From Melioribacteraceae bacterium (GTDB lineage: Bacteria; Bacteroidota; Ignavibacteria; Ignavibacteriales; Melioribacteraceae): 64,000 bases of DNA. Below, piece after piece: positions 1 through 17,957 of the stretch (position 1 is its first letter; the number at the start of each line of letters is the position of its first letter). The position numbers and the translations under genes are program-made. The stretch is from positions 3,047,700-3,111,699 of the forward strand of contig OY782765.1 of the NCBI GenBank assembly GCA_963678275.1. Reading direction: 5' to 3'. The notes under the pieces are model-generated. The model searched no databases and was not told the DNA's origin. It was given only the letters and a program-made list of their open reading frames with translations.

Positions 1-2
1 AA

Positions 3-710
3 TTCTGCTACGCCCAAGTCGATCCTGCCGATAAATTCTGCGGTGAATGCGGAAATCCGGCAGAAGGGATTACATGTCCATCCTGCGGCACTCACAGCTT
101 CTTCGATTTTTGCCCGAAGTGTAATAAACCACTCACCGATGAAGCCCTCGCTGAGATAGAAAAAAGCAAAAATGACCCTCAGATTCAGGAAATAAATAAA
201 CTTCTGGAAGAGCTTCAGGAATTTGAAGATCTGGAGGAAGTAGAGGAATTGTCTGAGGTGGAACTGCTGAACCAGCAGCTTGAGGATGAAATTGCCGCTG
301 AAGAGCAGAAGCTGAAAGATAAAATGGAAGAGATGAAAAGAACCAGCGAACTGTATAGAAATTATGTCGGCGCGCCTGATAAAAAACCCGCGTCTAAACC
401 GGCAAAAAAATCGCCTCCTCCGGTTACCCGCAAAAGAAGAGACCTGCAGAAAGAGAAAGAACGTAAAATAGAAATGCTTAAAAAACTTCAGGAAAAACTG
501 GATGTTTTAAAAGACCGCTCTTTCGAAACACCCCAGGCCGCCAGAAGATTTTTTATGGCTAATAAACCAAAAGGCAATTTTGTCTGGAACTGTAATTTTA
601 ATGATTCCATTCACCCCGATCCTTATAACTGCGGCCGGCCTGATAAAGGTGGCAAATGGGTCGTGGTTTATGGCAATATTGAATGGGAAACTCATTATGG
701 TGATAAATAA
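3..710 (+). CDS. Double zinc-ribbon protein, 5'-truncated by the window edge
   Basis: The frame is open from nt 3; the ORF track only starts at an internal TTG at 249. Translation begins FCYAQVDPADKFCGECGNP..CPSCG..CPKCNKPL, which gives two CxxC..CxxC ribbons. These are followed by an acidic coiled-coil-like segment, a K/P-rich linker and a Cys/Trp-containing C-terminal domain. Confidence 0.6.
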   Translation, partial: FCYAQVDPADKFCGECGNPAEGITCPSCGTHSFFDFCPKCNKPLTDEALAEIEKSKNDPQIQEINKLLEELQEFEDLEEVEELSEVELLNQQLEDEIAAEEQKLKDKMEEMKRTSELYRNYVGAPDKKPASKPAKKSPPPVTRKRRDLQKEKERKIEMLKKLQEKLDVLKDRSFETPQAARRFFMANKPKGNFVWNCNFNDSIHPDPYNCGRPDKGGKWVVVYGNIEWETHYGDK

Positions 711-858
711 AATCATCTGACTTTTAATATCAGAATTATCCGCTTAAAAGGATGTTCGGCTCTTTTAGGCTTAATCCGGTTTTATTCAGCTATATAATGG
801 AATTATAGCCGGAAAATAGATTTGTTCATTTATATCATTTTTAACACAAGGGGAATTC

Positions 859-3800
859 ATGAGCGACGATATTAAAAAAAACACCGGGCATGATGATGAT
901 CTGCTTCCGGATGATGACAAAACCCGGCGGATGGATGATGAAACTATCGGCGATGATGATAAAACTATCAGAATGGATGATGACACTATCGGTGATGATG
1001 ACCGAACTATCCGTATGGATGATGATACTATTTCCGATGAGGATAAGACGATCAGGGTTGAGGATGACGTTATTTCCGATTCCGATAAAACTATCAGAAT
1101 TGAGGATAACGAAAAAACTATTCGCACCACCAATGATGATGTAATTCAGGATGATGATAAGACAATCAGAGCGGATGAAAAAAGGATAGATTCCGAGACA
1201 ATTCAGGATGACGACAAAACAGTCAGAATGGATGAAACCGAAATTAAATCTACTGATGATGAACAGATTGAAGATGATGACAAAACTCAAAGGATTGATG
1301 ACTCGGCCGGACCAGGTGTTGAAAAAATTAAATCAAGTGTGCAGCCCGGAAGCAAACCAAAAGAAAAAAAAGAGGAAGAAACTCAGAAGTCAGAGGTGCT
1401 CGGACCCGATTGCTTTGATCTGAAAGGTGATATTTATAATACTGTCAAATTAATTAGCGATGAAACCGGGGAAGCTGAAATTTTCCTCGTTGAAAAGGAT
1501 GGCAAAAAATTTGTTCTGAAATTATATTTCCGAAATTACAAACCCAAGCTGCCCCTTGTAAAAAAACTAAGAGAGTTTACACATAAAGATATTATAAAAG
1601 TTTTTGATTTTGGCTATACAGGGGATAAACAGTTTTATGAACTGATGGAATTTGCCGCGGGGGGAACCCTCGACAAACATATGCCGATTAAAAATGTTAA
1701 AAAAATTAAAGAAATTGTTGATGAAACTGTTGATGCTCTTAATTTCTGCCACGGGCATGGCATTATCCACAGGGATATTAAACCCTCCAACCTTTTTTAC
1801 CGGAATGCCGATTCAACTGATGTGCTGATAGCTGACTTTGGAATCTCCTCCCTCTTTGACGAAGAGGTGGAAATGCACAAAACAAAACAGACGAAAACCG
1901 AGATATTCGCTCCCCCCGAAATGTACCTTTCAATGGGCGAAGGAGTTACGATGATTACCCCCAAGGTTGATTATTATGCGCTCGGGATAACTGTGCTCTA
2001 CCTTTGGACCGGGGAAAATCCCTTTAAAGGTGTTCCGAAACTTATGCTGCCCAATATAAAAAATGACGGCAAGATCAAAATCCCTGATGATATCGACTCG
2101 AATGTCAGAACGCTTATTAAAGGATTAACCGTTGTAAAAGCTGAAAAGCGCTGGGGTTATAATGAAGTGCAGAGATGGCTTAAAGGAGAAGATGTTCCGG
2201 TATTCGAAGAAACTGTGTCTCTGGACTATAAACCCTTTATGTTTGACGCGGCGCAAAACCTCATTGCCAAAACCCCCGAGGAACTGGCCGGAATTATGGA
2301 GAAGGATAAAGCGCTCGCTCAAAAATATCTCTACAGAGGTAAAATCACCAAATGGCTGGAAGAAGCGAATAACCAGAGACTTGCTGTTGAGATTGAAGAA
2401 ATTTATGAAAAACTTTATCCCAAAGATGAAGAAGCCGGGGTTATGGCCGCGATATATAAACTTGATCAGTCAATTCCATATACCGGTATTGACGGGCGCA
2501 AATGTGTTGAAGATCAGGAATTCGCCCAGCTCTTCCTCGATAATTTTGATGAATATAAAGCAAAACTTTCCAAAAAAAGTGACACGTTTTATGTTTTTAT
2601 TGAAAGTAAAGGTGACACAGCTTTTGCCGCGCAGTTGTGGTCTTACTTTAAGGGAAGCAAAGATCAGGAGCTTTCACTTCTGAAAGTGATTTATGACCTT
2701 TATCCCGACGCTAAATTCCGCTTCAGTTATGAAGAGTATATCGGACGGCCGCCGAAAGTATTAATGCTCGATAAGGTTGAAGAGATTGTCCGTATGATGA
2801 AAATGCACCAGAAAAGCGGCGCTAAATATCTTTTCGACGGGGGTCTCCTCTTCTGGCTCGAAAAACGGGCAAATAATGAATACAAAGATGAGGATTACAG
2901 TAAACAGTTCATTGAACCTATTAAATGGGTTAATTATGTAACTCAAAATTATCAGAAAAATAAAAGCGCGGCCCTTGAGCTTCTTTATTACGGAGTTGAT
3001 AAAAACGCCAAATTACTTTCACGTGACGGCAAAACCGAAAGGGAAACTAAAGAGGATATCGGCAATGAGATATTATCTGACTACCAGGAATATATCAAAC
3101 TGCTGAAACAGCCCAATTCGAGTATCAACCTTTTTATGCTCGCGAAAGGATGGAAAAAAGAGCAGAATTATGTCAAATTCTGCTTTGATATGAAGAATCA
3201 TAAAGATAAGATGGTGCCCTATAATGAATCCATAGCGATAATGAAAATTATCAACTTCTTCGGCGTGGGTGTCGCCTGGGTTTATGATGATAAGACATAT
3301 GATGATCCTGATGAATTGATGAAAGCCCCATCCTCGGTAAAAAAAGACGCGCGCGAGTTTATTGAAGATATCGATTCATTCCTTAATTCCTGGCTCAGCT
3401 TATATTTCCATGAACATCCCGACGTTGATTTTGACAAAACAGAATATGCCTATGAAAATAAACTTCTGGAATATTTTGAATTTGTTAAAAAGTTTGCTCC
3501 CGGCAGCGAAATCAGTAAACGATATGAGAAAGCGCGAAAAATACTCCCCAAAACCATAAAAAAAGAGAAAAAACTTGACCGCCGGTTTAACTTTACCAAA
3601 TTGCTGGCAATTCTTCTGCCCCTTCTTACCGGCGGCGCGGTATTCCTTTATGCGCAATATGGAGGAGGCGCCGCGGCATTCGATAAATCATTCTGGCAGA
3701 TTTCTCTTAATTATTATGTTATTTTTGCCCTCATCTTCACAATCTATTATTTCATCTCCGACGGATTTGGCGAAGGGAGGGAAATTTCCACCGGGTGCCT

Positions 3801-5283
3801 CGGAGGACCCATAGTCGGCGCGATTCTTGCCATTATCTTTTACGTGGTTTTCAGCTTCACAATTGGGAATCCCTACCTGCTTGGCGGACTGATATTGCTT
3901 ATTGTGGGATTTGGATTATTTAAAATAATTCCTGTTAATTACGGCAACAGGGAAATGCGCCGGCAGTTATTTAATATGGATGACCGGGACGAATTTGAAC
4001 TTGAGCCTTTATATTTTGCCCTGAGCGATGATGAAGAATATGAAACAACCCGTCTCGATCTTCTCGATCAATATCATCAGCACAGAAGAAGAGCAAAATG
4101 GGAACTGAAACGCTTCGGATTTATTCCTTCTCTTATCTTGCTTGCCGTACTGATTGTGATGGCTCTGGCAGACCCCAATATTAATACATATACTCAAAAA
4201 GCTGAAAATCTCTACAAAAAAGCGCTTAGTTTTATTCCTCTTGATATGTTTAGCGGCAGCGCTGAAATACCTGAAATAAAAGGTATGTGGCGAGGCGAAT
4301 TTGGCGACACTCCACTTGTGATGAATGTTACTAAACAAACAGAAAACACGCTCAACGCGAACCTTTCTATTCTTTACAGCACACATAAACATTATTCAAT
4401 AACCGGTGTCATTGACAGTTCCAGCGGTATGATCGAGCTTAAAGATAATTCCGGTGGTGTCTACATGGGTGAATTCAGCGAAAATAATTATGTAATGTCA
4501 GGTATGTATAGAAGTAAAGCCGGTGAAAACACCGCGTTCAAACTTGTATCCGATAACAAACCTGAAGAGGTTGAAGAAAAAGAACCGGTTAAAGAAGATA
4601 AAGAGCCATCAGAAAAACCGGAAGAAACAAAACGAACTGAAACGAAAAAAAGTGAAACACCAAAAGTAACTCCTCCGGTTGTCGCCGAAGAAAAACCGGC
4701 TGAAGAGAAAAAAACAGATACCGAAACCAAAATACCGGCAGTGACTGAAAAGAAAACTCCGGTAAAAACAGATAAAGAACCGGTTGTTCAGGAAAAGAAA
4801 AAAACTCCCGTTATTGCGGAAGAAAAACCTGTTGTTGAAAAAGAACCGGTTAAAACTGAAGAAAAGAAAACGGAAGTTAAAAAAGAAGCAAAACTGGTTC
4901 TTCCTAAAAAATCAATTCAGATGAGAACCGGGCAGGGATTCCGGATGGATATATATGACTGCTACCGTGTCCGCGCTTCAATCGTCAGGATAAAGTTCTT
5001 CATAACAGATATTCAGGGAAACAGGACTGTCAATATCCCGGCAAGTTCTATTATGGTAACTGACTGGAACGGAAACCGCGTGCCGGTCGACCAGGGAAGC
5101 CTCGGCGGCGCCGATCTTGACGGAACAGAGATTAACCTGAAAATGGAAAAAATGAAACCTGTGGAAGGTTCTTTTGTTTTCAGGAACTTTGATGAAAACG
5201 TTGCTAAAATAAGAAAACTTGAAGTAAGGCTCGGAGACGGAAGCTGGGAAACAGTTGTTTTTGAAGAGCTCGAAATAGATTAG
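859..5283 (+). CDS. Giant multidomain membrane Ser/Thr protein kinase (Hanks type)
   Basis: The 1474-aa ORF has an AAGGGG RBS-like motif upstream of the ATG. Kinase motifs are FVLKLY (VAIK-like), HRDIKPSNL, DFGIS and APPE. The N-terminus has acidic DDDKTIR repeats. About 5 hydrophobic helices lie around aa 905-1110, followed by a K/E/P-rich linker and a ~110-aa C-terminal domain. Confidence 0.9.
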   Translation: MSDDIKKNTGHDDDLLPDDDKTRRMDDETIGDDDKTIRMDDDTIGDDDRTIRMDDDTISDEDKTIRVEDDVISDSDKTIRIEDNEKTIRTTNDDVIQDDDKTIRADEKRIDSETIQDDDKTVRMDETEIKSTDDEQIEDDDKTQRIDDSAGPGVEKIKSSVQPGSKPKEKKEEETQKSEVLGPDCFDLKGDIYNTVKLISDETGEAEIFLVEKDGKKFVLKLYFRNYKPKLPLVKKLREFTHKDIIKVFDFGYTGDKQFYELMEFAAGGTLDKHMPIKNVKKIKEIVDETVDALNFCHGHGIIHRDIKPSNLFYRNADSTDVLIADFGISSLFDEEVEMHKTKQTKTEIFAPPEMYLSMGEGVTMITPKVDYYALGITVLYLWTGENPFKGVPKLMLPNIKNDGKIKIPDDIDSNVRTLIKGLTVVKAEKRWGYNEVQRWLKGEDVPVFEETVSLDYKPFMFDAAQNLIAKTPEELAGIMEKDKALAQKYLYRGKITKWLEEANNQRLAVEIEEIYEKLYPKDEEAGVMAAIYKLDQSIPYTGIDGRKCVEDQEFAQLFLDNFDEYKAKLSKKSDTFYVFIESKGDTAFAAQLWSYFKGSKDQELSLLKVIYDLYPDAKFRFSYEEYIGRPPKVLMLDKVEEIVRMMKMHQKSGAKYLFDGGLLFWLEKRANNEYKDEDYSKQFIEPIKWVNYVTQNYQKNKSAALELLYYGVDKNAKLLSRDGKTERETKEDIGNEILSDYQEYIKLLKQPNSSINLFMLAKGWKKEQNYVKFCFDMKNHKDKMVPYNESIAIMKIINFFGVGVAWVYDDKTYDDPDELMKAPSSVKKDAREFIEDIDSFLNSWLSLYFHEHPDVDFDKTEYAYENKLLEYFEFVKKFAPGSEISKRYEKARKILPKTIKKEKKLDRRFNFTKLLAILLPLLTGGAVFLYAQYGGGAAAFDKSFWQISLNYYVIFALIFTIYYFISDGFGEGREISTGCLGGPIVGAILAIIFYVVFSFTIGNPYLLGGLILLIVGFGLFKIIPVNYGNREMRRQLFNMDDRDEFELEPLYFALSDDEEYETTRLDLLDQYHQHRRRAKWELKRFGFIPSLILLAVLIVMALADPNINTYTQKAENLYKKALSFIPLDMFSGSAEIPEIKGMWRGEFGDTPLVMNVTKQTENTLNANLSILYSTHKHYSITGVIDSSSGMIELKDNSGGVYMGEFSENNYVMSGMYRSKAGENTAFKLVSDNKPEEVEEKEPVKEDKEPSEKPEETKRTETKKSETPKVTPPVVAEEKPAEEKKTDTETKIPAVTEKKTPVKTDKEPVVQEKKKTPVIAEEKPVVEKEPVKTEEKKTEVKKEAKLVLPKKSIQMRTGQGFRMDIYDCYRVRASIVRIKFFITDIQGNRTVNIPASSIMVTDWNGNRVPVDQGSLGGADLDGTEINLKMEKMKPVEGSFVFRNFDENVAKIRKLEVRLGDGSWETVVFEELEID
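910..1302 (+). repeat. In-frame ~42-bp (14-aa) degenerate tandem repeats encoding DDDKT(I/x)R(M)DD(D/E)TI(G/S)
   Basis: The DDDKTxR motif occurs eight times in the kinase N-terminus. The first four units are regular 42-bp repeats visible at DNA level (gatgatga(c/t)aaaactatc(a/c)g(a/t)atggatgatga..). Confidence 0.85.
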
Positions 5284-5533
5284 ACAGAATTGTATATTGT
5301 CTGAATGGAAGGTTTACAAAAAAATCAACTTTGCTCCTGAATGGGAGCAAAGTTTAATTACCCCGGGTGACTGATGTAAAAAGGAACCAGGAGTAACGAA
5401 TCAGGAAAGACGATTTGTCCCCGAAAGAGGGCGAACCGCAGCTAAAGTTTAAGGTAATTCCTGAAAGTGTAATAAAACAGGAATTATAATGAATTAATAG
5501 GTACTAAAAATTTGAAATCAACAGGTAGAAATT

Positions 5534-8500
5534 ATGCCTCTAAGTTGTGACAACTGTGGAGCCCAAAACAGGGATATCGCTAAATACTGTAAAAAGTGCG
5601 GCGGTGAACTTATTACCAGCGAAGCTATAGAGCTTGAATCACTGGTTGGATTGGGCCAGGTAAAAAGTGAAATAAAATCGATGATAAATGTCTATAAGGC
5701 AATGCAGTCCCGCGGAACCGGCCTGAGAAGACTCAACCTTCACTCTATTATTATGGGTGAATCGGGCACCGGAAAAAGTATGATCGCCGGTGTGTTGCAG
5801 ACATTATTCTATAAAAACAAGATCATCACTCAAAAAAACATCAACATCGTTGACGCAGTTGATTATGATGATTTTGCCGAGGAATTTGAAAATAATATTC
5901 AGAAAGCCCGCGGCGGTATTCTTTTTATTGATAACGTCCAGAAACTTGTGCCCGATGGTTACGCCACAGATATCAACAAACTTGATAAACTTTTTTCTGA
6001 AATGGATAAAATGGGAAATGATCCTATAGTTGTCCTTTCGGGATTGACTGAAGGATTCGGTTCATTCCTCGATAAAAACCCATCCATAAGGAACCGATTT
6101 AATTATTTCTTCCTCCTTCCCGAATATTCAGTTACCGATCTGCTTGAAATTTGCAAAAGAAAACTGGCCGCTTATAGTCTTTCATTATCAGAAGAATCGG
6201 AAGCGAGATTGAAAGGACTTTTCAAACACGCGGTAAAACATAAAGATGAATCTTTCGGCAATGGTCACCTCAGTTCCGCGACTGCCGAAGCGATTTTTAA
6301 AGCTTATCTTTCAAGAATCGGCAAAGGTGATCCGGATAATAATATCGTTAGTAATGATGATATTATCGGTGAAGTGGAAATAGAGCGCCCTGTTGAAGAA
6401 ATTATGGCCGAACTCGACAGCTTCATCGGAATGGACGAAGTCAAGGAAGCTGTGCGTGAAATAGCCCGCCAGATTGCTTCGAATAAGGAGAGAGAAGCGC
6501 GGGGACTCGGAGGGGCGGAAAAACCGGCCATGAACCTCGTGCTCACAGGCAACCCCGGAACAGGCAAAACAACTGTCGCCCGAAAGCTGGGTGAGGTTCT
6601 CGCCGCGCTCGGGTTTATCGATAACGGTCATGTAATAGAGGTTGACCGCAGCCAGATGGTTGGCCAGTATAAAGGACAGACCGCTATTCAGGTGACTGAT
6701 CTCTGCAACAAGGCAATGGGTGGAATTCTTTTTGTCGACGAAGCCTACACACTTTCTCAATCGAGTGAAATAGGAAGCTCCGACCAGTATGGAAAGGAAG
6801 CTATTGAAACACTGATGAAAAGAATGGAGGATGACCGTGGTAAATTTGTGGTTATCGCCGCCGGTTATAAAAACCTGATGGATCAGTTCCTCGATGTAAA
6901 TCCCGGCCTTAAAAGCCGTTTTGATAAAAATATCGATATCCCCGATTATAAACCGGATGAACTATTCCGGATTTTCCTGATGTTCGCCAAAAAGAAAAAG
7001 TATAAATTTACCGATGAGGCGCTGGAAAATGCTCAAAAAGCGATAAAGCTGATCTACGAAGGAAGGGATAAAAACTTCGGCAACGGACGTGAAATGAGAA
7101 AACTTTTCGACGCCACCCTGGCCCGCTTTTCCAACAGGATCAATTCTATTCCCGCGGCTGAGCAGACAAATCAGATGCTTACCACCATCACAGCCGAAGA
7201 TATCCCATACGAAGAACAAAGCGATAAGTCAATCGATGAAATTATGGGTAAACTTAATGAGCTTGTGGGTCTTAAAGGTGTAAAAGATAAAATAACCGAA
7301 CTTGTTCATTATATCAATCTTGAAAATAAACGCGCGAAGGATGGAGGTAAAAAAACAGCTCTCAACCTCAATATGGTTTTTACAGGCAATCCAGGCACAG
7401 GAAAAACTACCGTGGCAAGGATTATGGCCGATGTTTTTAAATCGCTCGGACTTTTATCCCGCGGACACCTTGTTGAAGTCGACAGCTCTCATCTTGTGGC
7501 AGGATACAAAGGCCAGACATCGCTGAAAACCAATAAAACAATTGATTCATCTATGGGAGGTCTCCTCTTTATCGATGAAGCCTATACCCTTTCGCAGGGA
7601 GGCGGTGACGGATTCGGCAAGGAAGCTATCGATACACTCCTGAAAAGAGTTGAAGATGACCGCGGACGCTTTATCTCAATTATTGCCGGTTATTCTAATG
7701 AAATGAGAGAATTCCTCGATGTTAACCCGGGGCTTCAATCCAGGTATACAAATGTCATCCATTTTGAAGATTATAAGGCTGATGAACTGAAAGAAATCCT
7801 GATAAGAATGATAGGGGGCAAAGGTTTCAGAATTGATGAAGACACCGATAAACGTCTCGATAGTTTCTTTAAATCCATCTATAACGGCAGAGATAAAAAT
7901 TTCGGCAATGGCCGCGAAGTGCGCAATATTTTTGAGTCTGCGCTCCAGAGACAAAGCACGCGGCTTGCTGAAAAAATGAATGCGGGCGAAGATGTGGACG
8001 ACCAGCTCGATCTGCTCACTTATGAGGATATTGCAGGAAGCAGTGAAAAAGAAAAATCTGTCGAGGAAATTCTGGCCGAACTTGACGGATTTATCGGTAT
8101 GGATAACGTCAAACAAATGGTCCGGGAAATAGCCCGCAAAATTGAGATAGATAATGAGCGTGTTAAACGTGGTATCGGCAGCGCTGATAAATCAGGTGTC
8201 CACCTCGTGATTACAGGCAATCCCGGAACAGGCAAAACTACGGTAGCCCGCAAACTCGGGGAAATATTTAAAGCTATTGGTTTCCTCAGCGGCGGCCAGG
8301 TTAATGAGGTGGATAAAAGCGGTATGGTAAGCCAGTATAAAGGAGAAACCCCCAAACTTGTCAATAAGCAGTGTGATAAGGCTATGGGAGGTATTTTATT
8401 CGTGGATGAAGCTTATGCGCTCTCGCCTCCTTCAGATATCGGGCAGAAAGATGAACTCGGAGTTCAGGCAATTGAAGCTCTTATGAAGCGTATGGAAGAT

Positions 8501-9712
8501 GACAGGGGTAAATTTGTGGCGATCGCCGCCGGGTATAAAGAAGAAATGGAAGGTTTTCTCGAAGCAAATCCCGGAATGAAAAGCCGTTTCGATTATTACC
8601 TGCATATTGAAGATTATAAACCGGATGAACTTTATAAAATATTTAACGTGGCATTCGCTAAAAAGAAAAAATATGCTCTCTCCCCCGAAGCGGATGAAAA
8701 AATTAAACTGGTGATTGAAGATATCTATAGCAGGCGTGATAAAAACTTCGCCAACGCCCGTGAAATGAGAAAGTTGTTTAATACGATAACCTCAAAAATG
8801 TCCGACAGAATATCAAATATTCCACAGAATGAACTCACAGATGAAATGTTCACCACAATTCTGCCGGAAGATATACCCTTCGAAGGAGCAAAAACAAGAT
8901 CAATTGATGATATTTTCGCGCAGCTCGATGAGCTTATCGGGCTCGATGGCATTAAGTCTGAATTGAGAGCCCTTACTAATTACCTGAGAGTTGAAAAGAA
9001 ACGCTCTGAACTTGGCGGTAAAGAAACCGCGGTTAATACACATTTTATTTTCACCGGTAATCCCGGAACGGGCAAAACAACCGTCGCGCGTATTGTTGCT
9101 GATATCCTTAAAGCGCTCGGTCTGCTTACAAAAGGACAGCTTGTGGAGGTGGATCGTTCGAATCTTGTCGCTTCTTATTCAGGCCAGACAAGTCCCAAGA
9201 CAAATAAAACAATTGACAACGCTATTGGCGGGGTGCTTTTTATCGATGAAGCCTATACTTTGTCGCGCGCCGGAGCAAATGATACTTTCGGTCGTGAAGC
9301 AATTGATACCCTTCTTAAGAGGGTTGAAGATGACCGGGGAAAATTTGTCGCCATCGCCGCCGGCTATACAAATGAAATGAATGAATTTCTGGAAACTAAT
9401 CCGGGACTTAAGAGCAGATTTACCAATGTAATTAACTTCGAAGATTACACCCCCGATGAAATGCTTCAGATATTTATGCTTTTTGTCAGGAAAAAGAAAA
9501 TGATCCTTGAGGATGGCGTAGGGGATCACCTTTACGAAAAATTCACCCGTATGTATCAAAACAGGGATAAAAACTTCGGGAACGCGCGCGATGTAAGAAA
9601 TATTTTTGAAAAAGCGCTTAAAATGCAGAGCACTCGTATAGCCGGAATGCTCGACTCGCCCGAATTTAATGTAGATGAACTGAACAAAATAAAAGTTGAG
9701 GATTTCGACTGA
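5534..9712 (+). CDS. Zinc-ribbon protein with five tandem AAA+ ATPase modules (CbxX/CfxQ/SpoVK/EccA-like)
   Basis: The N-terminus has CDNCG..CKKCG. Walker A motifs are GESGTGKS (aa ~75) and GNPGTGKTTVAR at aa ~339, 618, 895 and 1175, a spacing of ~278 aa. Each is followed by (I/L)LF(I/V)DEAY Walker B and a GRDKNFGN(G/A)RE(M/V)R element. Modules 2-3 and 4-5 are clearly paralogous pairs. Confidence 0.9.
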   Translation: MPLSCDNCGAQNRDIAKYCKKCGGELITSEAIELESLVGLGQVKSEIKSMINVYKAMQSRGTGLRRLNLHSIIMGESGTGKSMIAGVLQTLFYKNKIITQKNINIVDAVDYDDFAEEFENNIQKARGGILFIDNVQKLVPDGYATDINKLDKLFSEMDKMGNDPIVVLSGLTEGFGSFLDKNPSIRNRFNYFFLLPEYSVTDLLEICKRKLAAYSLSLSEESEARLKGLFKHAVKHKDESFGNGHLSSATAEAIFKAYLSRIGKGDPDNNIVSNDDIIGEVEIERPVEEIMAELDSFIGMDEVKEAVREIARQIASNKEREARGLGGAEKPAMNLVLTGNPGTGKTTVARKLGEVLAALGFIDNGHVIEVDRSQMVGQYKGQTAIQVTDLCNKAMGGILFVDEAYTLSQSSEIGSSDQYGKEAIETLMKRMEDDRGKFVVIAAGYKNLMDQFLDVNPGLKSRFDKNIDIPDYKPDELFRIFLMFAKKKKYKFTDEALENAQKAIKLIYEGRDKNFGNGREMRKLFDATLARFSNRINSIPAAEQTNQMLTTITAEDIPYEEQSDKSIDEIMGKLNELVGLKGVKDKITELVHYINLENKRAKDGGKKTALNLNMVFTGNPGTGKTTVARIMADVFKSLGLLSRGHLVEVDSSHLVAGYKGQTSLKTNKTIDSSMGGLLFIDEAYTLSQGGGDGFGKEAIDTLLKRVEDDRGRFISIIAGYSNEMREFLDVNPGLQSRYTNVIHFEDYKADELKEILIRMIGGKGFRIDEDTDKRLDSFFKSIYNGRDKNFGNGREVRNIFESALQRQSTRLAEKMNAGEDVDDQLDLLTYEDIAGSSEKEKSVEEILAELDGFIGMDNVKQMVREIARKIEIDNERVKRGIGSADKSGVHLVITGNPGTGKTTVARKLGEIFKAIGFLSGGQVNEVDKSGMVSQYKGETPKLVNKQCDKAMGGILFVDEAYALSPPSDIGQKDELGVQAIEALMKRMEDDRGKFVAIAAGYKEEMEGFLEANPGMKSRFDYYLHIEDYKPDELYKIFNVAFAKKKKYALSPEADEKIKLVIEDIYSRRDKNFANAREMRKLFNTITSKMSDRISNIPQNELTDEMFTTILPEDIPFEGAKTRSIDDIFAQLDELIGLDGIKSELRALTNYLRVEKKRSELGGKETAVNTHFIFTGNPGTGKTTVARIVADILKALGLLTKGQLVEVDRSNLVASYSGQTSPKTNKTIDNAIGGVLFIDEAYTLSRAGANDTFGREAIDTLLKRVEDDRGKFVAIAAGYTNEMNEFLETNPGLKSRFTNVINFEDYTPDEMLQIFMLFVRKKKMILEDGVGDHLYEKFTRMYQNRDKNFGNARDVRNIFEKALKMQSTRIAGMLDSPEFNVDELNKIKVEDFD

Positions 9713-10290
9713 TGATCTGCGCGTTTTGTAAAAAAGAAATAGATGCCGATTCTTTCTACTGCGATCAGTGCGGTGAGGAAATTAAAATATGCCCCAAATG
9801 TGGCAAAGCCGGGAAAGGCAAAATATGCACTTCCGATGGCACAAAACTTATTCTGGCAAAAGATAAACAACCTGAAGAGGATGATAAAACAATTCCCGTA
9901 AAACAGGAAGTCGCCACACCAAAACCACCCCCTCCCGGTGTTAAAAAGATCATTGATGACACCCCTCCTCCGAAACCGGAGAAAAAAGCTAATCCGGTTA
10001 TCACCCTTAGGAATAATGCGGTTAATATTACATTTTCACCGAAACATGAGGATATTGTCGGAAGAAAAAAAGGCAATTTCGCCCATCTCTTTGCACAGTA
10101 TAAACAAATCTCAGGTCAGCACGCGAAATTTATGTATAGTCCTGAAACCGGATGGATGGTGGCCGATCTGGGCTCTTCCAACGGAACAAAATATAAGGAT
10201 AAGAAACTTATTCCCAATAATCCTGTTAAATTGGAGAACGGGACTCATTTGCTGCTCGCGAATATTGAGTTTTTTATTGAAATTGTTTAA
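9712..10290 (+). CDS. Zinc-ribbon + FHA domain protein
   Basis: The ATG overlaps the upstream TGA (TGATG at 9710-9714). The N-terminus has CAFC..CDQCG..CPKCG, followed by a P-rich linker. The C-terminus has FHA-like motifs: VGRKKG..SGQHAKF..VADLGSSNGT..LENGTHLLLANIEF. Confidence 0.85.
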   Translation: MICAFCKKEIDADSFYCDQCGEEIKICPKCGKAGKGKICTSDGTKLILAKDKQPEEDDKTIPVKQEVATPKPPPPGVKKIIDDTPPPKPEKKANPVITLRNNAVNITFSPKHEDIVGRKKGNFAHLFAQYKQISGQHAKFMYSPETGWMVADLGSSNGTKYKDKKLIPNNPVKLENGTHLLLANIEFFIEIV

Positions 10291-10299
10291 GGTTGATTC

Positions 10300-11055
10300 A
10301 TGAAAATATTAGTTGCTGCCGAAAGTAATGTCGGCCTGGTCAGAGGCCGAAATGAAGATATGATCCTCGTGGATACCGACCTGATCAGAGATGGTAAAAA
10401 CAGCTACCTCTTTGAAGCGGGTGAAAATCAGGATTCTTTTGTCATGGCTGTTTCTGATGGCATGGGTGGGCATAATGCCGGCGATTTTGCCAGTGAATAT
10501 ATTCTTACCGAGTTTGCCAAACGTTTTCATCAGATGGAAGATGTTCTGGATGAACAGCAGCTGCAGGATTATATGACCCTCACTATTTCCAATATTCATA
10601 ATGAACTTAATCAGATGGGAAAGGAAGATCCCGAAAAACGTAATATGGGCGCTACCATTATTATTTTTCTTTATTATCATGAAAAATTCTATTTTGCTCT
10701 TGCCGGCGACAGCCGTCTTTACCGTTTTAGAAGAGGTATACTCAAGCAGATATCCCGCGATCATACACTCGCCGAAATGAATAACCTCGACCGTTCGGCG
10801 AGCCATGTGCTCCTTAACGCTGTCGGCGGGGGTGAGGAAGTTTACCTCGACTTTTTTGATATTACCGATAATGTCATGCCCGATGACATATTCCTCCTCT
10901 GCAGCGACGGACTCACCGATATGGCCGCCGATGAAAAAATTGAAGAAACAATCGACAGTCTCGATGAATTCGACACCGAATCCCTCGTAAAACTTGCCCA
11001 TAAAGGCGGAGGAAAAGACAACGTCTCGGTTATTCTTGCCCGTATAACCGGGTAA
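10300..11055 (+). CDS. PP2C-family Ser/Thr protein phosphatase
   Basis: The motifs NEDM, SDGMGGHNAGDFAS, LLCSDGLTDM and GGGKDNVSVILARI are present. The start lies 9 nt after the FHA gene stop. Confidence 0.9.
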   Translation: MKILVAAESNVGLVRGRNEDMILVDTDLIRDGKNSYLFEAGENQDSFVMAVSDGMGGHNAGDFASEYILTEFAKRFHQMEDVLDEQQLQDYMTLTISNIHNELNQMGKEDPEKRNMGATIIIFLYYHEKFYFALAGDSRLYRFRRGILKQISRDHTLAEMNNLDRSASHVLLNAVGGGEEVYLDFFDITDNVMPDDIFLLCSDGLTDMAADEKIEETIDSLDEFDTESLVKLAHKGGGKDNVSVILARITG

Positions 11056-11087
11056 TAAACCGAAATATAATATAAAATTTGTCCGTA

Positions 11088-11118
11088 GGGGCAACCCTTG
11101 TGGTTGCCCTTTTTTTTA
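11088..11118 (+). terminator. Rho-independent terminator closing the kinase/AAA+/FHA/PP2C cassette
   Basis: GGGCAACC-cttgt-GGTTGCCC is followed by T8, 33 nt downstream of the PP2C stop. Confidence 0.75.
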
Positions 11119-11658
11119 GTTGTCCTCCATATATCAGCGGCCCCTTTTACCACAAGCTACGGAGACGAAGGTGTTCCAACTGTAAAATTACCGTTCCCAT
11201 CAATTTTTTACGATCCATCCAAAAAATATCGTCAACCATTACCGGCGATTAAAATATATTCAGAACTCCTGATCCCTGTAATAAAAGACAATAACCTACA
11301 TGGATTCATTCGTAAGATAAAATCGCGGGATACAAGCCTGGAAGAAAGTCCCGCCAGGGACGACAGAAACAACTGTATATAGTGAGAACTTGGGATATAA
11401 TAATTCGCGATGAACTTCCGCGATTTCATTTTGCGAGAGGAAAGGAGTTATGAATAGTAGTAAAACTATCACAGGAGGACCTAAGTCTGCTGAAACAATC
11501 CCGCACAGAAGATCATGAATCGATAGGAATGATTGGCTGCCCGATAAATAATGCCCGCCATCTGCCGGTATGAACAGCACAAATACCCGGCTGGTTATAA
11601 AAGCTAATCTCTCCTGCCGGCTGAAATCACCGGCAGGTATTTAGAAATTTTTTAATTA

Positions 11659-11856
11659 TCAGAGTTTAATCAGATAATCCTTATACTGCTGCTCTCCTTT
11701 TTTAAAACGCAGATAAAAATCATTGTTATTCGCGGCGGGATTTCTGGTTGTGGCTCTGACCAGCTCTTTCTGATATCCCAACTCTTCATACTTTTCGATC
11801 AACAAACTGAAAAACCGGTTTACCATTTCTTCAGCTTTTTCCAGTGTCATTTTCAT
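11659..11856 (-). CDS. Small hypothetical protein (65 aa)
   Basis: The ORF has a GGAAGG RBS-like motif just upstream of the ATG and non-repetitive, plausible composition. A CCTGCCGG/CCGGCAGG hairpin sits at 11613-11637 just downstream. I recognise no family. Confidence 0.4.
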   Translation of the reverse strand: MKMTLEKAEEMVNRFFSLLIEKYEELGYQKELVRATTRNPAANNNDFYLRFKKGEQQYKDYLIKL

Positions 11857-12083
11857 AACCTTCCTGCATTATTCTACAAAAACCATGATACAAAATCACC
11901 GGAGCATTTTCTGTCTGAACTAACCAATACTCCTGAACTTAGTAAAAAAAAGTAAATATGTTTGTGATTTGGCTCCCTTCCATGTTTTTTGTATAATTCT
12001 GTGAGACAATCTTTGCTCATTGTCACATTTCTTCTTTCTCTATTCAGACGTTTATACAACCATATAGTTGGCCTTTGTTCCAA

Positions 12084-13267
12084 AAATTTCAGGTCATTTT
12101 TTTATACCCCATATTAATGAACCGGCAAAGCCGGAAGTGAAAAGTTGTAAGTGGAAATTGAAGAGTTACTTAAGTGATAACGGATAATTATCAATTTATC
12201 CTGTTAGTCTTTTTAATCCACTCAATCCTTTTTTTCTTTCTTTTCGTATCTATCTTAAAATTCCATTGCAAATATTGCCCTTTTGTATAAAGTTAATAAG
12301 GTTTAATTTTTAGGGGTGTTTTCCTTTGCTACTAAGGTTAAAAAATAAAGAATAAGGTTTTTTGAGCTTTTTTTGTGGGATTTTGCGTTTTGGTGATTTA
12401 GCGGCATTTTCCTGCTGAAATCTTCGAAATCCGCGTAATCAGAGATATCTGCGGTCCTCTTTTTAATTATTCATTGTTCATGACTAATTTAATTCTTGCC
12501 TTTTTGCGCAGAATTTAACTACTAACGGAATACTCCTACTCATACTCTGATTCTTTAATACCGATACCGAAAAATAATCATGTTATCCTTAAATCCTTTA
12601 ATCATGGTTCAGACATTTTGTTCTGCGTAAACCTGTTTTGACCTTTCCACCGATTGAATAAGATTAATAAGGTTTACTACCTCCGCTACAAAAGAGCCTC
12701 AATTCGGGAAACATCTAATTTAAATTTTGGCATCAACAGAAACAGATATAATAACCTTTTGAAAACTCTTCAATATTGAAAGATCGAAATCCCCTCCCCT
12801 TAAGATTTTAAGGGGAGGAGGGGAGGGGTTTGATCTGCACTGAGATGATACAAAACTTGAGTGAATTAAATATATACCCCTAAAAATGATTTTATTTTCC
12901 TCTAAAAAATAATCTTGTTGCCTGGAAGAAAAAAGAATAAAATTAAGGTTTTTGAGTATTTTTGTGGGATTTTGCGTTTTGGTGAATTAGCGGCATTTTT
13001 CCTGCTGAAATCTTCGAAATCCGCGTAATCAGAGATATCTGCGGTCCTCTTTTTAATTATTCATTGTTCATTATTAATTATTAATTGATATTGTTTGACC
13101 TTTTATAGAAATTGACCGCTATTAGTAAAATCTCCCAAATTCTGAAAATAATCAGCCCCGCAATATCCCCCCCCCTTCATTCCCGATCAATTGTTAATTG
13201 AGTTTTTATTCCTTAATTTTAACCGTAAAGAAGATCAAACATTGTTAAAATAAAACAGAATAGTTTT
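12084..13267. repeat. Non-coding region built from modular dispersed repeats, including a ~140-bp direct repeat (about 12350-12490 vs 12945-13075) and a G-rich hairpin at 12791-12828
   Basis: Two copies of ..TTTTGTGGGATTTTGCGTTTTGGTGA(A)TTAGCGGCATTTT(T)CCTGCTGAAATCTTCGAAATCCGCGTAATCAGAGATATCTGCGGTCCTCTTTTTAATTATTCATTGTTCA.. are visible by eye. The hairpin is CCCCTCCCCTTAAGATTTTAAGGGGAGG. There is no credible ORF. Confidence 0.75.
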
Positions 13268-13465
13268 GTGCCGGTTATCAGAATTGACATTGGGAAACAC
13301 TCTGCCACAGCGGAAATAAAAGTAGAATTAATCGAAAAACTAACCCGGACCGCATCGGAAGTAACAAAAATTCCAGCCGATGTTTTTTCGGTAATTATCT
13401 ATGAACATGAAGACAATAACTACGGCGTGGGAAGCAAAACTCTGGATAAAGTCAGAAAACAATAA
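13268..13465 (+). CDS. 4-oxalocrotonate tautomerase family protein
   Basis: The 65-aa product starts (GTG) M-P-V-I-R-I. It has the Pro-1 catalytic N-terminus and the size and beta-alpha-beta pattern typical of the tautomerase superfamily. Confidence 0.7.
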   Translation: MPVIRIDIGKHSATAEIKVELIEKLTRTASEVTKIPADVFSVIIYEHEDNNYGVGSKTLDKVRKQ

Positions 13466-13493
13466 CTCAGGAAAAAATTAACAACTTTAGGGA

Positions 13494-14300
13494 ATGGTAA
13501 TGATAAACTTCAGACTTAAAAACATTGACGAAGTAATCCCCTTTGGGGAAGAACCCGATTTAGTCATGAACTGGTACGCGCTTTCAGATGGAGAACTATG
13601 GCTCGATTTCGGGGGAACTATACTCTTCGAATATACCGAAGAGGCAATCGAATATTTTGATGACCTTTATTCGAAATACAACGACTATTATATAGCGAGA
13701 TTCCTTGAGGATTTTTCCGCGCTGTTCGGTACAATAAGCCATAGTATTCCTGAAAGGTTTTTCAAGCTTGCTGACAACCTGTAGCAATTTTTTAACGAAG
13801 CTGAAAAATGGCTCGATCTCAAAGAAGAGGATGAAGAGGAGCCGGGCCAATTTTTCTTCGAAACTTTTGATTACCTTATTTCATGGACTGCCGACCGCTT
13901 TCTGGATTCCGGGCACCTTACCGGGGCGCCTGAAATTTTCTTTTTCAGGCACAAAGATAAAATAAGGATTGTCTGGCAAACAGATCAGAAATATGATGAT
14001 GAAGCAGAACTATGGAAGGCCGGGAACGGATTTTATGATATGGACTATACCGAATTTGTGAAAAATGTGGAAGAATTTGGCGAACGTTTTTTCGAAAATA
14101 TGATGAAACAGGTACAAAACGGAATGGGAAAAGATTGGGAAGATGTAAAATTCGACAAAAAAAACCTGCTTCAGGAACAACAGGAACGGCTGCGGGAATT
14201 CCGGGAAGAACTGAAATTATTGAAAAATCCCCCCGTAGATGAAACAAACTGGAAGGAACTTGAGAATTTGTTCGACCAAATGAAAAAAGAAATCCGGTAG
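13494..14300 (+). pseudogene. Uncharacterised ~268-codon gene interrupted by a single in-frame TAG at 13782-13784
   Basis: ORFs 13494..13784 and 14040..14300 are in the same frame. The 255 nt between them are open in that frame and translate to protein-like sequence (QFFNEAEKWLDLKEEDEEEPGQFFFETFDYLISWTADRFLDSGHLTGAPEIFFFRHKDKIRIVWQTDQKYDDEAELWKAGNGFYD..). Confidence 0.6.
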
Positions 14301-14541
14301 AAAAGGCCGCCCCCGCAATATATGCGGAGGGCAAACTTTTCAGCTTGAGCCGGGGAACGCTTGTCCCTTCCCGGGTAGAGACAGAACCGTATGCCTGTGA
14401 ATCTATCGGAATGTGAGTTCATTACAGGGAAACAAATTCATCCGCCCCCGATTAATACCCGAAAGAAATCACAATTCTTTGCGGGAAAATAATTATTTTG
14501 CATAGGATAAAAATTACTGACCAATGAATTAATTATTATCA

Positions 14542-15360
14542 ATGAACAGGGAAACTATGACAGCGCAGGAAAAACTGGCAGGAAGAATTTCACAAGGATA
14601 CCATATATGCGTCGGGCTCGATACCGATATAAACAAAATACCTGAACACCTGAATAACAGGAAAAATCCGGTTCTTGATTTTAACAATGAAATAATCAGA
14701 GCGACTGCCGATTCAGCGGCGGCGTATAAAATAAACTTCGCCTTTTATGAGAAAGATGGTTTGAAAGGAATTGAAAATCTCCTCGCAACAATAGATATGA
14801 TACCTGATGACATACTCATTATCGGTGACGCCAAAAGAGGAGATATCGGGAATACTTCGAAAATGTATGCCGAGGCAGTATTTAATACATTCGGGTGTGA
14901 CGCTGTAACCCTGCACCCTTATATGGGAATTGATTCTGTGGCGCCATTTATTGATTTCAGTGATAAAATAAGTTTTGTGCTTGTCCTTACTTCAAATAAA
15001 AGCGCTGCCGATTTTGAAAAATTATCACTCGCCGATGGTGAAAAACTTTTTGTCGAAGTGCTTAATAAATCGAATTCATGGAATGTAAATAATAATGTGG
15101 GGATTGTATTCGGAGCAACTAATCCGGAAGAACTTGCGGTATATTCACACCACTTTAATGAAATGCCTGTTTTACTGCCGGGTGTCGGCGCCCAGCAGGG
15201 TGATCTGAGCAAAGTGCTGAAAATTTTCAGAGATCAAAAAAAGGAAAACTTTATTATCAATGTAAGCAGAGGACTTATTTATGCGGGCAAGGGTGAAGAT
15301 TTTGCCGAATTTTCACGAAATGAACTAAATAAATACAATAATATTGTAAAATCTGCCTGA
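14542..15360 (+). CDS. pyrF: Orotidine-5'-phosphate decarboxylase (type 2)
   Basis: The GDAKRGDIGNT signature is present, along with the GLDT and LPGVGAQ(Q)G motifs. Length is 272 aa. Confidence 0.9.
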   Translation: MNRETMTAQEKLAGRISQGYHICVGLDTDINKIPEHLNNRKNPVLDFNNEIIRATADSAAAYKINFAFYEKDGLKGIENLLATIDMIPDDILIIGDAKRGDIGNTSKMYAEAVFNTFGCDAVTLHPYMGIDSVAPFIDFSDKISFVLVLTSNKSAADFEKLSLADGEKLFVEVLNKSNSWNVNNNVGIVFGATNPEELAVYSHHFNEMPVLLPGVGAQQGDLSKVLKIFRDQKKENFIINVSRGLIYAGKGEDFAEFSRNELNKYNNIVKSA

Positions 15361-15526
15361 ATTTTTAAATTTATCCTGATTAATTGTGGCATCTTAATTT
15401 TAATATAGATATTTTTTAAAAAAATATATAATGTGAGATTATGCAAAACATGCGATATTTATGTTATTATATTGAGAGGAGGCATCCGTTTATAAACTGA
15501 ACGAGTAATCAAACAGGATAAATAAC

Positions 15527-16996: not shown

Positions 16997-17396
16997 AAAA
17001 GACTTTGCGCTCCGCTGAATAAGCTATAAAAGAGGATAAGAACATAAATGGAGGAATCACATTCCCCGGTTTAAGTTATCGTCGGGCTATATTATCTTTT
17101 CCCCGTCAGATGATATGTTATATAAACCTGGCAAGACTCCTGATAAAAGAGTTACCCGGGTAAATTCCGCATAGAGGAAAATCCATTGCTGCCAGCCTGT
17201 CCCCACATATATTATTCATTATAATTAGTTTAACACAAATTCTCAGGACTTATCCCGACATCCTGCGCAATAAATCCGGTAACAGAGAAAAATTGGGAAA
17301 CGACCGGTGTTATTCCCGAAATTATTGTTCCTCGTGATTTGCATTGGATACCGCGATTGTACCGGCCAAAATTGCGGGAAAAGAATTTGCGGGAAA

Positions 17397-17957
17397 AATA
17401 ATACAGAGCTCCTGACATCACGTATATTGAAATACAACTATTTTATCATTTTCTTTCATTAAATGACAAAATAATGACAGTAGGAATTTTTCGTTATCCT
17501 CTCTCAATATCGTTCTTATCTTTTAAAGCGACCTCAAAAAAATAAGCGTTAAAAAAATCAAATGAACGGAGCGTTAAAAAAGGAAAGCTGTTTGAGGCAC
17601 ATGTCTTTTTATGTGCCGAGTTCTTTCATTTTAGCGGAGAGAATTGATTTTTAGCTTATTTTTTTGCAGTCTTGACTTTTTTTGCCTGCTCGCCGCAGGA
17701 GAGTTACTTTTTGTGTCAAGACAAAAAGTAAGAGCATCTCTTATAAAATATATTTGGTAAGATTAATGACAATTCCCATTGATTCTCGCTTTACCAGCTG
17801 AGGAAAATTTCAAATTATTTCACGCAAAGGAAACTTATAAACGCAATTCTTTTTAACAGAATTTCTAATGCCAGTCGCATACGTATATAAGCAACAAAAA
17901 ATCTATGTTGTTTTATTTCAATACATTATGTTTTTGATGTCTGGAGTCCTGTATTAT
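17397..17957. mobile_element. MITE-like non-autonomous element, copy 1 (~550 bp, terminal inverted repeats)
   Basis: The left end is AATAATACAGAGCTCCTGACATCA. The reverse complement of the right end is AATAATACAGGACTCCAGACATCA. The element is collinear with the copy at 37310-37870, has no ORF, and has internal perfect hairpins at 17596-17617 and 17704-17731. Confidence 0.7.

Follow-up and report, generated by a model that had tools for sequence, protein, structure and literature searches.

A conserved bacterial cassette that links a membrane Ser/Thr kinase, a zinc-ribbon FHA protein, and a PP2C phosphatase to a tandem CbbX-type AAA+ protein

A kinase, an FHA protein, and a PP2C phosphatase together make up an established reversible phosphothreonine (pThr) switch, and in a Melioribacteraceae bacterium the genes for these three proteins are found next to that of an AAA+ protein with five modules in a single chain. 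The locus lies at the left end of a stretch of 64,000 nt (GCA_963678275.1, contig OY782765.1, positions 3,047,700 to 3,111,699 of the forward strand; hereafter, the window), where five genes on the + strand (window positions 1 to 11118) encode, in this order, a double zinc-ribbon (DZR) protein, the kinase, the AAA+ protein, a DZR-FHA protein, and the phosphatase. Do these genes work together and, if so, on what? We found that they form a discrete unit that is co-inherited in several phyla, and we favor, with moderate confidence, a role as a specialized AAA+ remodeler that would be gated by Thr phosphorylation in response to a membrane signal and would act on a dedicated client. The features of the cassette, with the evidence for each, are the following (window coordinates; AF2, AlphaFold2).

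3-710, + strand: gene 1, multi-zinc-ribbon (DZR) protein, frame still open at the left window edge (Pfam DZR, 7.6e-6)
859-5283, + strand: Hanks-type Ser/Thr kinase, polytopic membrane protein, 1474 aa (Pkinase, 2.8e-32; motifs; orthologues P0122-P0226)
916-1296, + strand: acidic N-terminal tail of the kinase, aa 20-146, with nine [DE][KR]-T-x-R copies (motif scans)
2221-3504, + strand: cytoplasmic accessory domain of the kinase, aa 455-882, five repeats of ~85 aa (AF2 model, repeat alignment)
3592-4170, + strand: membrane region of the kinase, aa 912-1104, ~5 predicted transmembrane helices (hydropathy scan; helices in the AF2 model)
4171-5280, + strand: lineage-specific C-terminal region of the kinase, aa 1105-1474 (no counterpart in Prevotella kinases)
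5328-5354, no strand assigned: perfect hairpin of 11 bp in the kinase-AAA+ spacer (hairpin scan)
5534-9712, + strand: zinc-ribbon-headed AAA+ protein, 1392 aa, five modules (Pfam, NCBIfam, and PDB matches, module typing, AF2)
5534-6388, + strand: zinc ribbon CxxC...CxxC and degenerate AAA+ module 1 (sequence motifs, alignment A1)
9712-10290, + strand: DZR, Pro-rich linker, and FHA protein, 192 aa (FHA, 4.2e-11; DZR, 1.1e-5)
10300-11055, + strand: PP2C Ser/Thr phosphatase, 251 aa (PP2C, 2.4e-13; Stp1/IreP-like, 1e-46)
11087-11119, + strand: intrinsic terminator ending the cassette (terminator scan)

The arrangement is not a product of chance, because the gene set recurs in many genomes. Searches with the AAA+ protein retrieved thousands of relatives, with the best matches in Melioribacteraceae (~63% identity). 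Five-module relatives of ~1391 aa came from Melioribacteraceae and Ignavibacteria-type genomes, four-module relatives of ~1101 aa from Prevotella, and proteins with six to eight modules reached 2233 aa. The neighborhoods of tens of homologous loci (designated here by L numbers) were then compared. In five of them (Prevotella and L006-L009) the same five genes, with DZR proteins of 310-340 aa, appeared in the same order, embedded in flanks that were unrelated between lineages: Tex, an ABC-F protein, an M13 peptidase, metA, and a U32 peptidase in Prevotella; succinyl-CoA ligase, NDK, RecO, and HtrA in L006; purD and a MacB-type transporter in L007; and IMPDH and SurA-like rotamases in L009. The genes around the window cassette and its close relatives are housekeeping ones, and the position of the cassette is stable across several Prevotella contigs. 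Some loci carry additional genes. In L006, a 150-aa gene lies between gene 1 and the kinase (5359-5811), and a 1081-aa protein with no Pfam domain follows directly after PP2C (16281-19526); both may be lineage-specific accessory components. In L009, a gene with a single AAA domain (174 aa, 14204-14728) stands between the five-module AAA+ and FHA genes and may be a detached sixth module.

The same linkage was recovered when one genome per GTDB species was scanned and tblastn was run with each of the window proteins. Every zinc-ribbon-headed protein with at least four modules had a kinase and a gene 1 homologue upstream (L010-L015, L017, L018, L020, and L084), and FHA and PP2C genes downstream in all cases except L020, where the 4.5 kb between the AAA+ gene and the contig end yielded no match to either. 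A DZR-FHA orthologue was present in every cassette seen, L020 again excepted. In L084, a Leptospirales metagenome-assembled genome (MAG), the set was rearranged into a kinase with TPR repeats, an unknown gene, a DZR protein, a four-module AAA+ protein, a DZR-FHA protein, and PP2C. Around ~70 other CbbX-like loci with one to four modules, from Saprospiraceae, Streptomyces, Firmicutes, and others, tblastn found no cassette partner within 10 kb. Tandem CbbX/EccA-like AAA+ proteins are thus widespread outside the kinase cassette, and two architectures stood out among these loci. Proteins with three modules and a TPR head come from Melioribacteraceae and Bacteroidota (L019 8720-12619 and L054 8504-12547, with no cassette partner among the neighboring genes checked). 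Others, with two modules behind a long N-terminal extension, come from Saprospiraceae, from Streptomyces and other actinomycetes, and from Firmicutes (among L025-L089).

We also approached the cassette from the kinase side, with four distant kinases (L090-L093) picked by kinase sequence alone. All four adjoin a zinc-ribbon-headed three-module AAA+ protein and a DZR-FHA protein, three have PP2C, and two the DZR protein. They belong to a deltaproteobacterial MAG (L090), a Calditrichaceae MAG (L091), and two metagenome contigs (L092 and L093); no DZR protein was recognized in L090 or L091, nor PP2C in the stretch of L091 that was seen. Other genes lie close to three of these cassettes: a second tandem AAA+ protein, a RyR-domain protein, and a 1794-aa DUF4062-STAND-TPR NTPase in L091 (1-7969), an integrase, a primase-like protein, and a reverse transcriptase in L092 (1161-5849), and a KAP NTPase (15017-17137) and GIY-YIG genes in L093.

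Defined as a DZR protein, a kinase with T-x-R motifs and repeats, a zinc-ribbon tandem AAA+ protein with a degenerate module 1, a DZR-FHA protein, and PP2C, all co-directional and adjacent, the cassette is complete in the window, and the set is also found in L002-L018, L084, L092, and L093. Its hosts comprise Prevotella, other Bacteroidales, Melioribacteraceae-type genomes, one MAG each from Leptospirales, Calditrichaceae, and Deltaproteobacteria, and the two metagenome contigs, with many of the contigs being those of Prevotella and Prevotellaceae from gut and rumen samples. Since the linkage holds from the AAA+ side, in the GTDB scan, and from the kinase side, the cassette is a discrete co-inherited unit in several phyla. 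An earlier note on this DNA, made from the sequence alone, had set co-conservation of the five genes beforehand as the test that its proposal of a joint machine had to pass, and it did so.

One could still suppose that the genes are mere neighbors, with a general housekeeping module of kinase, PP2C, and FHA proteins, such as the PknB/PstP/FhaA module that controls growth and division, lying beside an independent tandem AAA+ chaperone. Triads of this kind occur in many bacteria without an AAA+ partner, tandem CbbX-like proteins exist without kinases, and there are spacers of 148 nt (gene 1 to kinase) and 250 nt (kinase to AAA+, unusually long) inside the window cassette. However, the linkage is kept in at least five phylum-level lineages with unrelated flanks, survives the rearrangement in the Leptospirales MAG, and was met in 4/4 of the distant kinases, and at the AAA+/FHA and FHA/PP2C junctions the stop codon of one gene overlaps or almost touches the start codon of the next, so that we judge mere proximity quite improbable. 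At these junctions, the AAA+ stop and the FHA ATG share one base (TGATG), and the PP2C start lies 9 nt past the FHA stop. Both had been read in the earlier note, together with five co-directional genes carrying these domains in this order, on which open reading frames (ORFs), Pfam, and NCBIfam agree. The strong terminator that it placed at the end of the cassette was likewise recovered, as a stem of 10 bp, 6 of them G-C (11087-11111), with eight consecutive T behind it, and was the best-scoring site in a scan of positions 1-14600. The kinase and AAA+ genes abut in most homologous cassettes, unlike in the window, where the spacer between them contains the hairpin AACTTTGCTCC-TGAATG-GGAGCAAAGTT (5328-5354). 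Because an A-run precedes its stem, this hairpin is terminator-like on the minus strand only. In L001, a 95%-identical relative whose contig starts inside the kinase gene, the AAA+ gene is in two pieces (132 aa and 1275 aa); in the window it is whole.

What kind of AAA+ protein is it? Pfam recognized AAA in five stretches (4.2e-72) and AAA_lid_6 (PF17866) in four (5.1e-62), all five modules matched the NCBIfam models for SpoVK (TIGR02881), EccA (TIGR03922), and CbbX (TIGR02880), and the nearest solved structures were the C-terminal domain of EccA1 (9lur, 3e-55) and CbbX (3syl, 3e-52). The five CbxX/SpoVK-type modules announced in the earlier note are therefore there, with the qualification that module 1 is catalytically degenerate and four are competent by motif. 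Module 1 retains a Walker A motif (GESGTGKS; GxxGTGK[ST] in alignment A1 of 15 five-module proteins), has a Walker B motif without the catalytic Glu (ILFIDN), lacks the GY sensor-1 and the sensor-2 Arg, and is only 24-27% identical to modules 2-5. Residues C5, C8, C19, and C22 of the ribbon and G75, G78, and K81 of module 1 are invariant in the same alignment. This module probably binds nucleotide without hydrolyzing it. Modules 2-5 show the Walker motifs GNPGTGKTT and LF[IV]DEAY, an AAGY sensor-1, an NPG[LM].SR[FY] Arg finger, a GN[GA]R[ED].R sensor-2, and a Y-[KS]-G pore loop. They carry the signature of the SpoVK-EccA-CbbX clade (GY sensor-1, Asn, and second Arg finger, with the Asn spacing judged by eye), and their membership in this clade, as defined in PMC11513918, is borne out by AAA_lid_6, the three TIGR models, 9lur and 3syl, and Foldseek, in which a single module superposed on CbbX with a template modeling (TM) score of 0.75.

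The modules fall into two alternating types. Modules 2 and 4 (type A) are 62% identical, modules 3 and 5 (type B) 57%, and A and B types 42-47%, so the order in the window is N-A-B-A-B, where N is the degenerate module. Across cassettes the number varies from 3 to 8, such that three-module relatives are N-A-B, four-module ones N-A-B-A' or N-A-B-B', those with six modules N-A-B-A-A-B, and those with seven or eight N-(A-B)3 plus extras. Growth in module number seems to have proceeded mainly via duplication of the A-B pair.

Characterized members of the clade have one module per chain and act as homohexamers: CbbX is the red-type Rubisco activase and is encoded with the form I red-type Rubisco genes (cbbL/cbbS), SpoVK promotes MurG function and has a short beta-alpha N-terminal domain in sporulating Bacillota, and EccA, whose EccA1 belongs to ESX-1, has an N-terminal TPR domain and a locus of the ESX/type VII secretion system (T7SS) with eccB-E, EssC, and WXG100. 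The window protein, with AAA_lid_6, GY sensor-1, sensor-2 Arg, and pore-loop Tyr, is a full clade member in modules 2-5 by sequence and fold. It differs in its five fused modules, the first degenerate and the others alternating, in having a zinc ribbon for a head instead of a TPR or a short beta-alpha domain, and in its link to a kinase, FHA protein, and PP2C, which has not been reported for CbbX, SpoVK, or EccA. There is no TPR, ecc-type genes are missing from the window and from the 10 kb around the cassette at the Pfam-annotated homologous loci, no Rubisco genes were found in the examined window ORFs or homologous loci, and the hosts are from the FCB group and other Gram-negative lineages. 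Because the defining contexts and N-terminal domains are missing, the sequence identifies the protein as no EccA, CbbX, or SpoVK; a bona fide T7SS EccA had been named in the earlier note as an outcome that would refute its hypothesis.

These same observations bear on whether the cassette could be an accessory ATPase of a secretion system, either EccA-like in a T7SS or gating a type VI secretion system (T6SS) in the manner of PpkA/PppA/Fha1. The modules do match T7SS_EccA (TIGR03922) and the EccA1 structure 9lur (3e-55), kinase, FHA, and PP2C are the logic of posttranslational T6SS regulation, and cargo of the type IX secretion system (T9SS) with Por_Secre_tail domains is encoded elsewhere in the window. 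However, no structural genes (EccB-E, EssC/FtsK, WXG100, T6SS, or T9SS) were found within 10 kb of the cassette at any Pfam-annotated locus or to the right of the cassette in the window, as had already been remarked for the window itself, the head is a zinc ribbon and not the EccA TPR, the hosts are diderm FCB-group and other Gram-negative bacteria without T7SS, and the flanks differ in every lineage. Synteny thus largely refutes a secretion role, which we regard as extremely improbable.

The second protein is a Hanks-type Ser/Thr kinase (Pkinase PF00069 at aa 235-437, 2.8e-32, 112.6 bits against a cutoff of 31.7), in which the catalytic motifs, namely, the beta3 Lys (VLK), HRDIKPSN, DFG, and PPE, appear intact from the sequence. 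It does not belong to the PASTA kinases (PknB/Stk1), given that NF033483 reached 80.1 bits against 450, over the kinase domain only, and no Pfam PASTA match was obtained. For the ~430 aa after the kinase domain there was neither a Pfam match nor a sequence match in the PDB. An AF2 model of aa 455-1110 (predicted local distance difference test [pLDDT] 90.1, predicted TM score [pTM] 0.71) depicts five repeats followed by a helical membrane bundle, each repeat being a beta-hairpin and then helices; in the alignment the repeats are weak and of ~85 aa. Foldseek retrieved nothing better than E = 0.07 in the PDB with this model. An exhaustive HMMER search with the accessory domain returned 247 representatives among 1.84 billion, and in full-length hits the match began ~200-460 residues into the protein, as expected just past a kinase domain; the family is rare. 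Because hydropathy gives ~5 transmembrane helices, the lineage-specific C-terminal 370 residues would be indicated to lie outside the cytoplasm if these helices are real. Prevotella kinases lack this region (aa 1105-1474).

The tail ahead of the kinase domain drew our attention to a short motif. In the window kinase, aa 20-146 hold nine [DE][KR]-T-x-R copies (also written [DE]KT[IV]R), against a background of 1 motif per 12,565 residues of the remaining window ORFs. Close orthologues have 1-9 T-x-R copies, distant kinases start with MSTQR or NKTTR, and two Thr-bearing columns ahead of the kinase domain are nearly invariant in an alignment of 46 kinases (A3). The motif also occurs in FHA proteins, either in the linker (EKTMR in L007 and QKTMR in L012) or at the extreme C terminus (DKTVRI in L006, DKTVRL in L008, GTRRI in L090, and GTQRL in L092 and L093). 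In the other cassette proteins it was not found, save for one match to a loose pattern in the L006 AAA+ protein (RTVR, aa 798). We propose that the motifs of the kinase tail are candidate phospho-acceptor and FHA-docking sites.

The reader and the eraser of such a mark would be the products of genes 4 and 5. The FHA protein (PF00498, 4.2e-11, 43.5 bits against a cutoff of 20.7; DZR, 1.1e-5) keeps the signature residues G-R, S-x-x-H (SGQH), and N-G (NGT) of the pThr-reader family, to which it belongs, and is predicted to bind pThr. The phosphatase passes the Pfam cutoff for PP2C (PF00481, 2.4e-13, 50.8 bits) and has intact metal-binding motifs (RNED, DGMGGH, GDSR, DG, and DN); against the Stp1/IreP model NF033484 it scored 159.3 bits (1e-46), under the equivalog cutoff of 230, and so it classifies as a PP2C, though not as a curated Stp1 equivalog.

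Gene 1 had been described as a double zinc-ribbon protein. The DZR match is there (7.6e-6, slightly below the Pfam gathering score); the gene is not complete, since the window edge cuts it at the 5' end, and ~95 N-terminal residues are missing compared with the 331-aa homologue of L006. What remains contains zinc ribbons, a coiled-coil stretch, and, at the C terminus, a Cys/His knuckle, W-x-C-N-[FY]-x4-H-x2-P-x2-C-x-P-x2-GG-x-W, which is conserved in homologues. Full-length homologues of 285-339 aa, with four to five zinc ribbons plus a coiled coil, hold the same position in L002-L009, L092, and L093. The ribbons of gene 1, the AAA+ protein, and the FHA protein are all of the [FY]C.xCG type and may serve to bring the three proteins together, as the earlier note had suggested. 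An ESCRT-III or CdvA analogue was considered for gene 1, and no supporting evidence was found.

How might these parts work together? Members of the SpoVK-EccA-CbbX clade are dedicated chaperones with narrow clients, variable N-terminal domains that recruit the client, and no protease partners (PMC11513918). In the remodeler that we favor, the polytopic kinase would sense a membrane or envelope cue via its bundle of ~5 transmembrane helices, the lineage-specific outer domain, and/or the cytoplasmic domain of five repeats, and would phosphorylate the T-x-R Thr in its own N-terminal tail and, in some lineages, the same motif on the FHA protein. The zinc-ribbon FHA protein would read the pThr and couple the kinase to the zinc-ribbon-headed tandem AAA+ protein, which, with four modules competent for hydrolysis by motif and with pore-loop aromatics, would pull on a peptide segment of a dedicated client and so remodel or activate it. 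CbbX, which pulls the tail of the Rubisco large subunit, offers a model for such pulling. PP2C would reset the switch, and gene 1 might be a scaffold or the client.

Several observations weigh against this proposal. No client or effector was recognized among the cassette proteins, and the glycine-rich loop of the kinase is degenerate. The window FHA protein has no clean T-x-R (its linker has DDKTIP only), the copies in Prevotella kinases number just one or two and are degenerate, and the +3 position, which usually sets FHA selectivity, is variable in the motif; the preference of the FHA domain for T-x-R is putative. Given the spacers of 148 nt and 250 nt, the second with its hairpin, co-transcription as a single transcript is no more than putative. 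Finally, some features would also suit a conflict system: the uneven spread over phyla, the differing numbers of modules, and the defense-like or mobile neighbors at some distant loci.

In such an anti-phage or conflict system, the kinase would detect infection or envelope damage, FHA and PP2C would set a threshold, and the AAA+ protein or the kinase would be the effector, acting, for instance, through the unfolding of phage or host proteins or through phosphorylation of the abortive-infection type. The earlier note had raised a defense machine as a possibility, and there is something in its favor: the spread is patchy over unrelated phyla, the kinase-accessory family is small (247 among 1.84 billion), module number and kinase C termini differ between lineages, the distant loci neighbor the STAND (L091), KAP and GIY-YIG (L093), or integrase, primase-like, and reverse transcriptase genes (L092) described above, and PADLOC matched the kinase best to mad6 and the AAA+ protein best to IetA, TRIP13, and mad8. 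However, the PADLOC and NCBIfam matches cover the generic kinase or AAA core only (MAD6, 81.6 bits against 460; IteA, 96 against 510), and the cassette is no MADS system, since the MAD6 model NF047741 aligned with the kinase domain alone and no methyltransferase or other MADS genes are adjacent. Nor does the cassette have a nuclease, toxin, TIR, pore, or other recognizable effector domain; the window and all close relatives sit amid housekeeping genes, with a stable position in several Prevotella contigs; and plasmid and phage collections gave no cassette-level match, only generic CbbX-family ones at <30% identity. All in all, we consider a conflict role unlikely.

The gated remodeler also raises the question of how 3-8 modules in a chain assemble. 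An AF2 model of residues 1-1118 of the AAA+ protein, built on a 52-sequence alignment, reached a pLDDT of 85 and a pTM of only 0.51. In Foldseek, consecutive module pairs superposed moderately on the stacked D1-D2 of Rix7, Cdc48, and ClpA (TMt 0.54-0.60, root mean square deviation [rmsd] 7-8 Å) and poorly on dynein (TM 0.10-0.17, rmsd ~28 Å). A single-chain ring of the dynein or midasin kind was rejected on the 3-8 module variation and the poor dynein superposition, which with a pTM of 0.51 amounts to a lean only. Because the number of modules varies and the superpositions of module pairs and on dynein point the same way, the model leans weakly toward stacked tiers over a single-chain ring. 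A bolder version, which we hold to be doubtful, is that the 3-8 fused CbbX-type modules stack into a multi-tier translocation tube or a noncanonical assembly whose length would be set by A-B duplication and whose loading at the membrane would be licensed by a phospho-degron-like T-x-R code, written by the kinase, read by the zinc-ribbon FHA protein, and erased by PP2C. If true, this machine would be a bacterial counterpart, in logic, of phospho-regulated eukaryotic and archaeal AAA+ remodelers, working on a client in the membrane or envelope of abundant gut Prevotella and related bacteria.

The earlier note knew of no characterized system with this composition, and when we searched the literature for this gene combination, no account of it came up either. 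The switch itself has well-known precedents in PpkA/PppA/Fha1, the Thr-phosphorylation switch of the Pseudomonas H1-T6SS, and in the actinobacterial PknB/PstP/FhaA-FhaB module, in which a membrane Hanks kinase, PP2C, and FHA protein are encoded together, with the FHA protein as presumed adaptor and the phosphatase as presumed reset. The cassette differs from them in that its output is a tandem CbbX-type AAA+ protein with no T6SS, cell wall, or division genes adjacent, in that its kinase has the T-x-R tail, the five-repeat domain, and the predicted five-helix membrane bundle and neither PASTA nor vWA, and in that its FHA protein has an N-terminal double zinc ribbon. FraH of Anabaena, needed for the reorganization of intracellular membranes in heterocysts, has the same layout of double zinc ribbon, Pro-rich linker, and C-terminal FHA as gene 4, a likeness of shared domain architecture; to our knowledge, FraH is not encoded beside a tandem AAA+ protein, this kinase family, or PP2C.

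Among described systems, the closest analogy in logic is with archaeal Vps4/ESCRT-III loci, where the AAA+ protein is coupled with a membrane Ser/Thr kinase, a Ser/Thr phosphatase, and an FHA protein (Makarova et al. 2024, PMC10936438), and the shared pairing suggests phosphorylation-dependent recruitment of the AAA+ protein at a membrane. Vps4, however, has an MIT domain where the cassette has zinc-ribbon tandem CbbX-like modules, the cassette hosts are bacterial, and no ESCRT-III/PspA-like or CdvA-like protein was recognized in the cassette. Another operon-encoded kinase/PP2C module with a nonsignaling partner was described in a GTPase-centric system (Kaur et al. 2020, PMC7159879), and in the Deinococcus operon there is also an FHA protein; that partner is a vWA protein and no tandem AAA+, and PMC7159879 contains no description of the cassette.

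Known, then, are the signaling logic and the AAA+ clade, and new are the conserved combination, the 3-8 tandem modules with a degenerate head, the T-x-R motif, and the kinase repeat domain without a solved relative. The cassette pairs the best-understood bacterial Thr-phosphorylation logic with a little-studied clade of single-client AAA+ proteins, and the candidate T-x-R docking motif provides an experimental handle on how such a chaperone is recruited and switched. Several modules per chain, a degenerate head, and alternating types are unusual for bacterial AAA+ proteins and raise the question of tiers versus ring, and the repeat domain with its five-helix bundle is confidently modeled and has no solved structural relative. 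Given the prevalence in gut and rumen Prevotella, the function of the cassette could matter for envelope physiology, or for resistance to phages, in major gut commensals.

Past the terminator, ~2 kb (11120-13250) are AT rich (GC ~0.35), with no ORF longer than 94 aa and no Rfam match, as in the whole window. L001 aligns with this region in patches only (blocks of 91% and 80%), indicating that it varies between close relatives. A DUF5984 gene follows, which is intact in L001 (266 aa, L001 8966-9766); its window counterpart (13494-14300, +) is broken into three short ORFs (13494-13784, 13768-13965, and 14040-14300), being either a pseudogene or the result of assembly frameshift errors. A U32 peptidase with DUF3656 is encoded 11 kb from the cassette in the window (22295-24118, -) and 1 kb away in Prevotella L002 (15567-17633); this proximity is probably a coincidence, because none of the annotated regions around the other cassettes examined contains the gene. 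Farther to the right, an ORF for an AbiEii nucleotidyltransferase toxin (27300-28169, -; PF08843, 5e-32) is overlapped upstream by another (28162-28884, -) that is probably an AbiEi-type antitoxin, and the two (27300-28884), ~16 kb away from the cassette, would make up a type IV toxin-antitoxin pair. Pointing to a host of the FCB group (Bacteroidota or Ignavibacteriota-like), as do the best AAA+ matches in Melioribacteraceae, the window also encodes several secreted proteins with T9SS C-terminal sorting and Laminin_G_3 domains (18517-20415, 24292-25707, and 28991-32209), one of them with an M10 peptidase domain.

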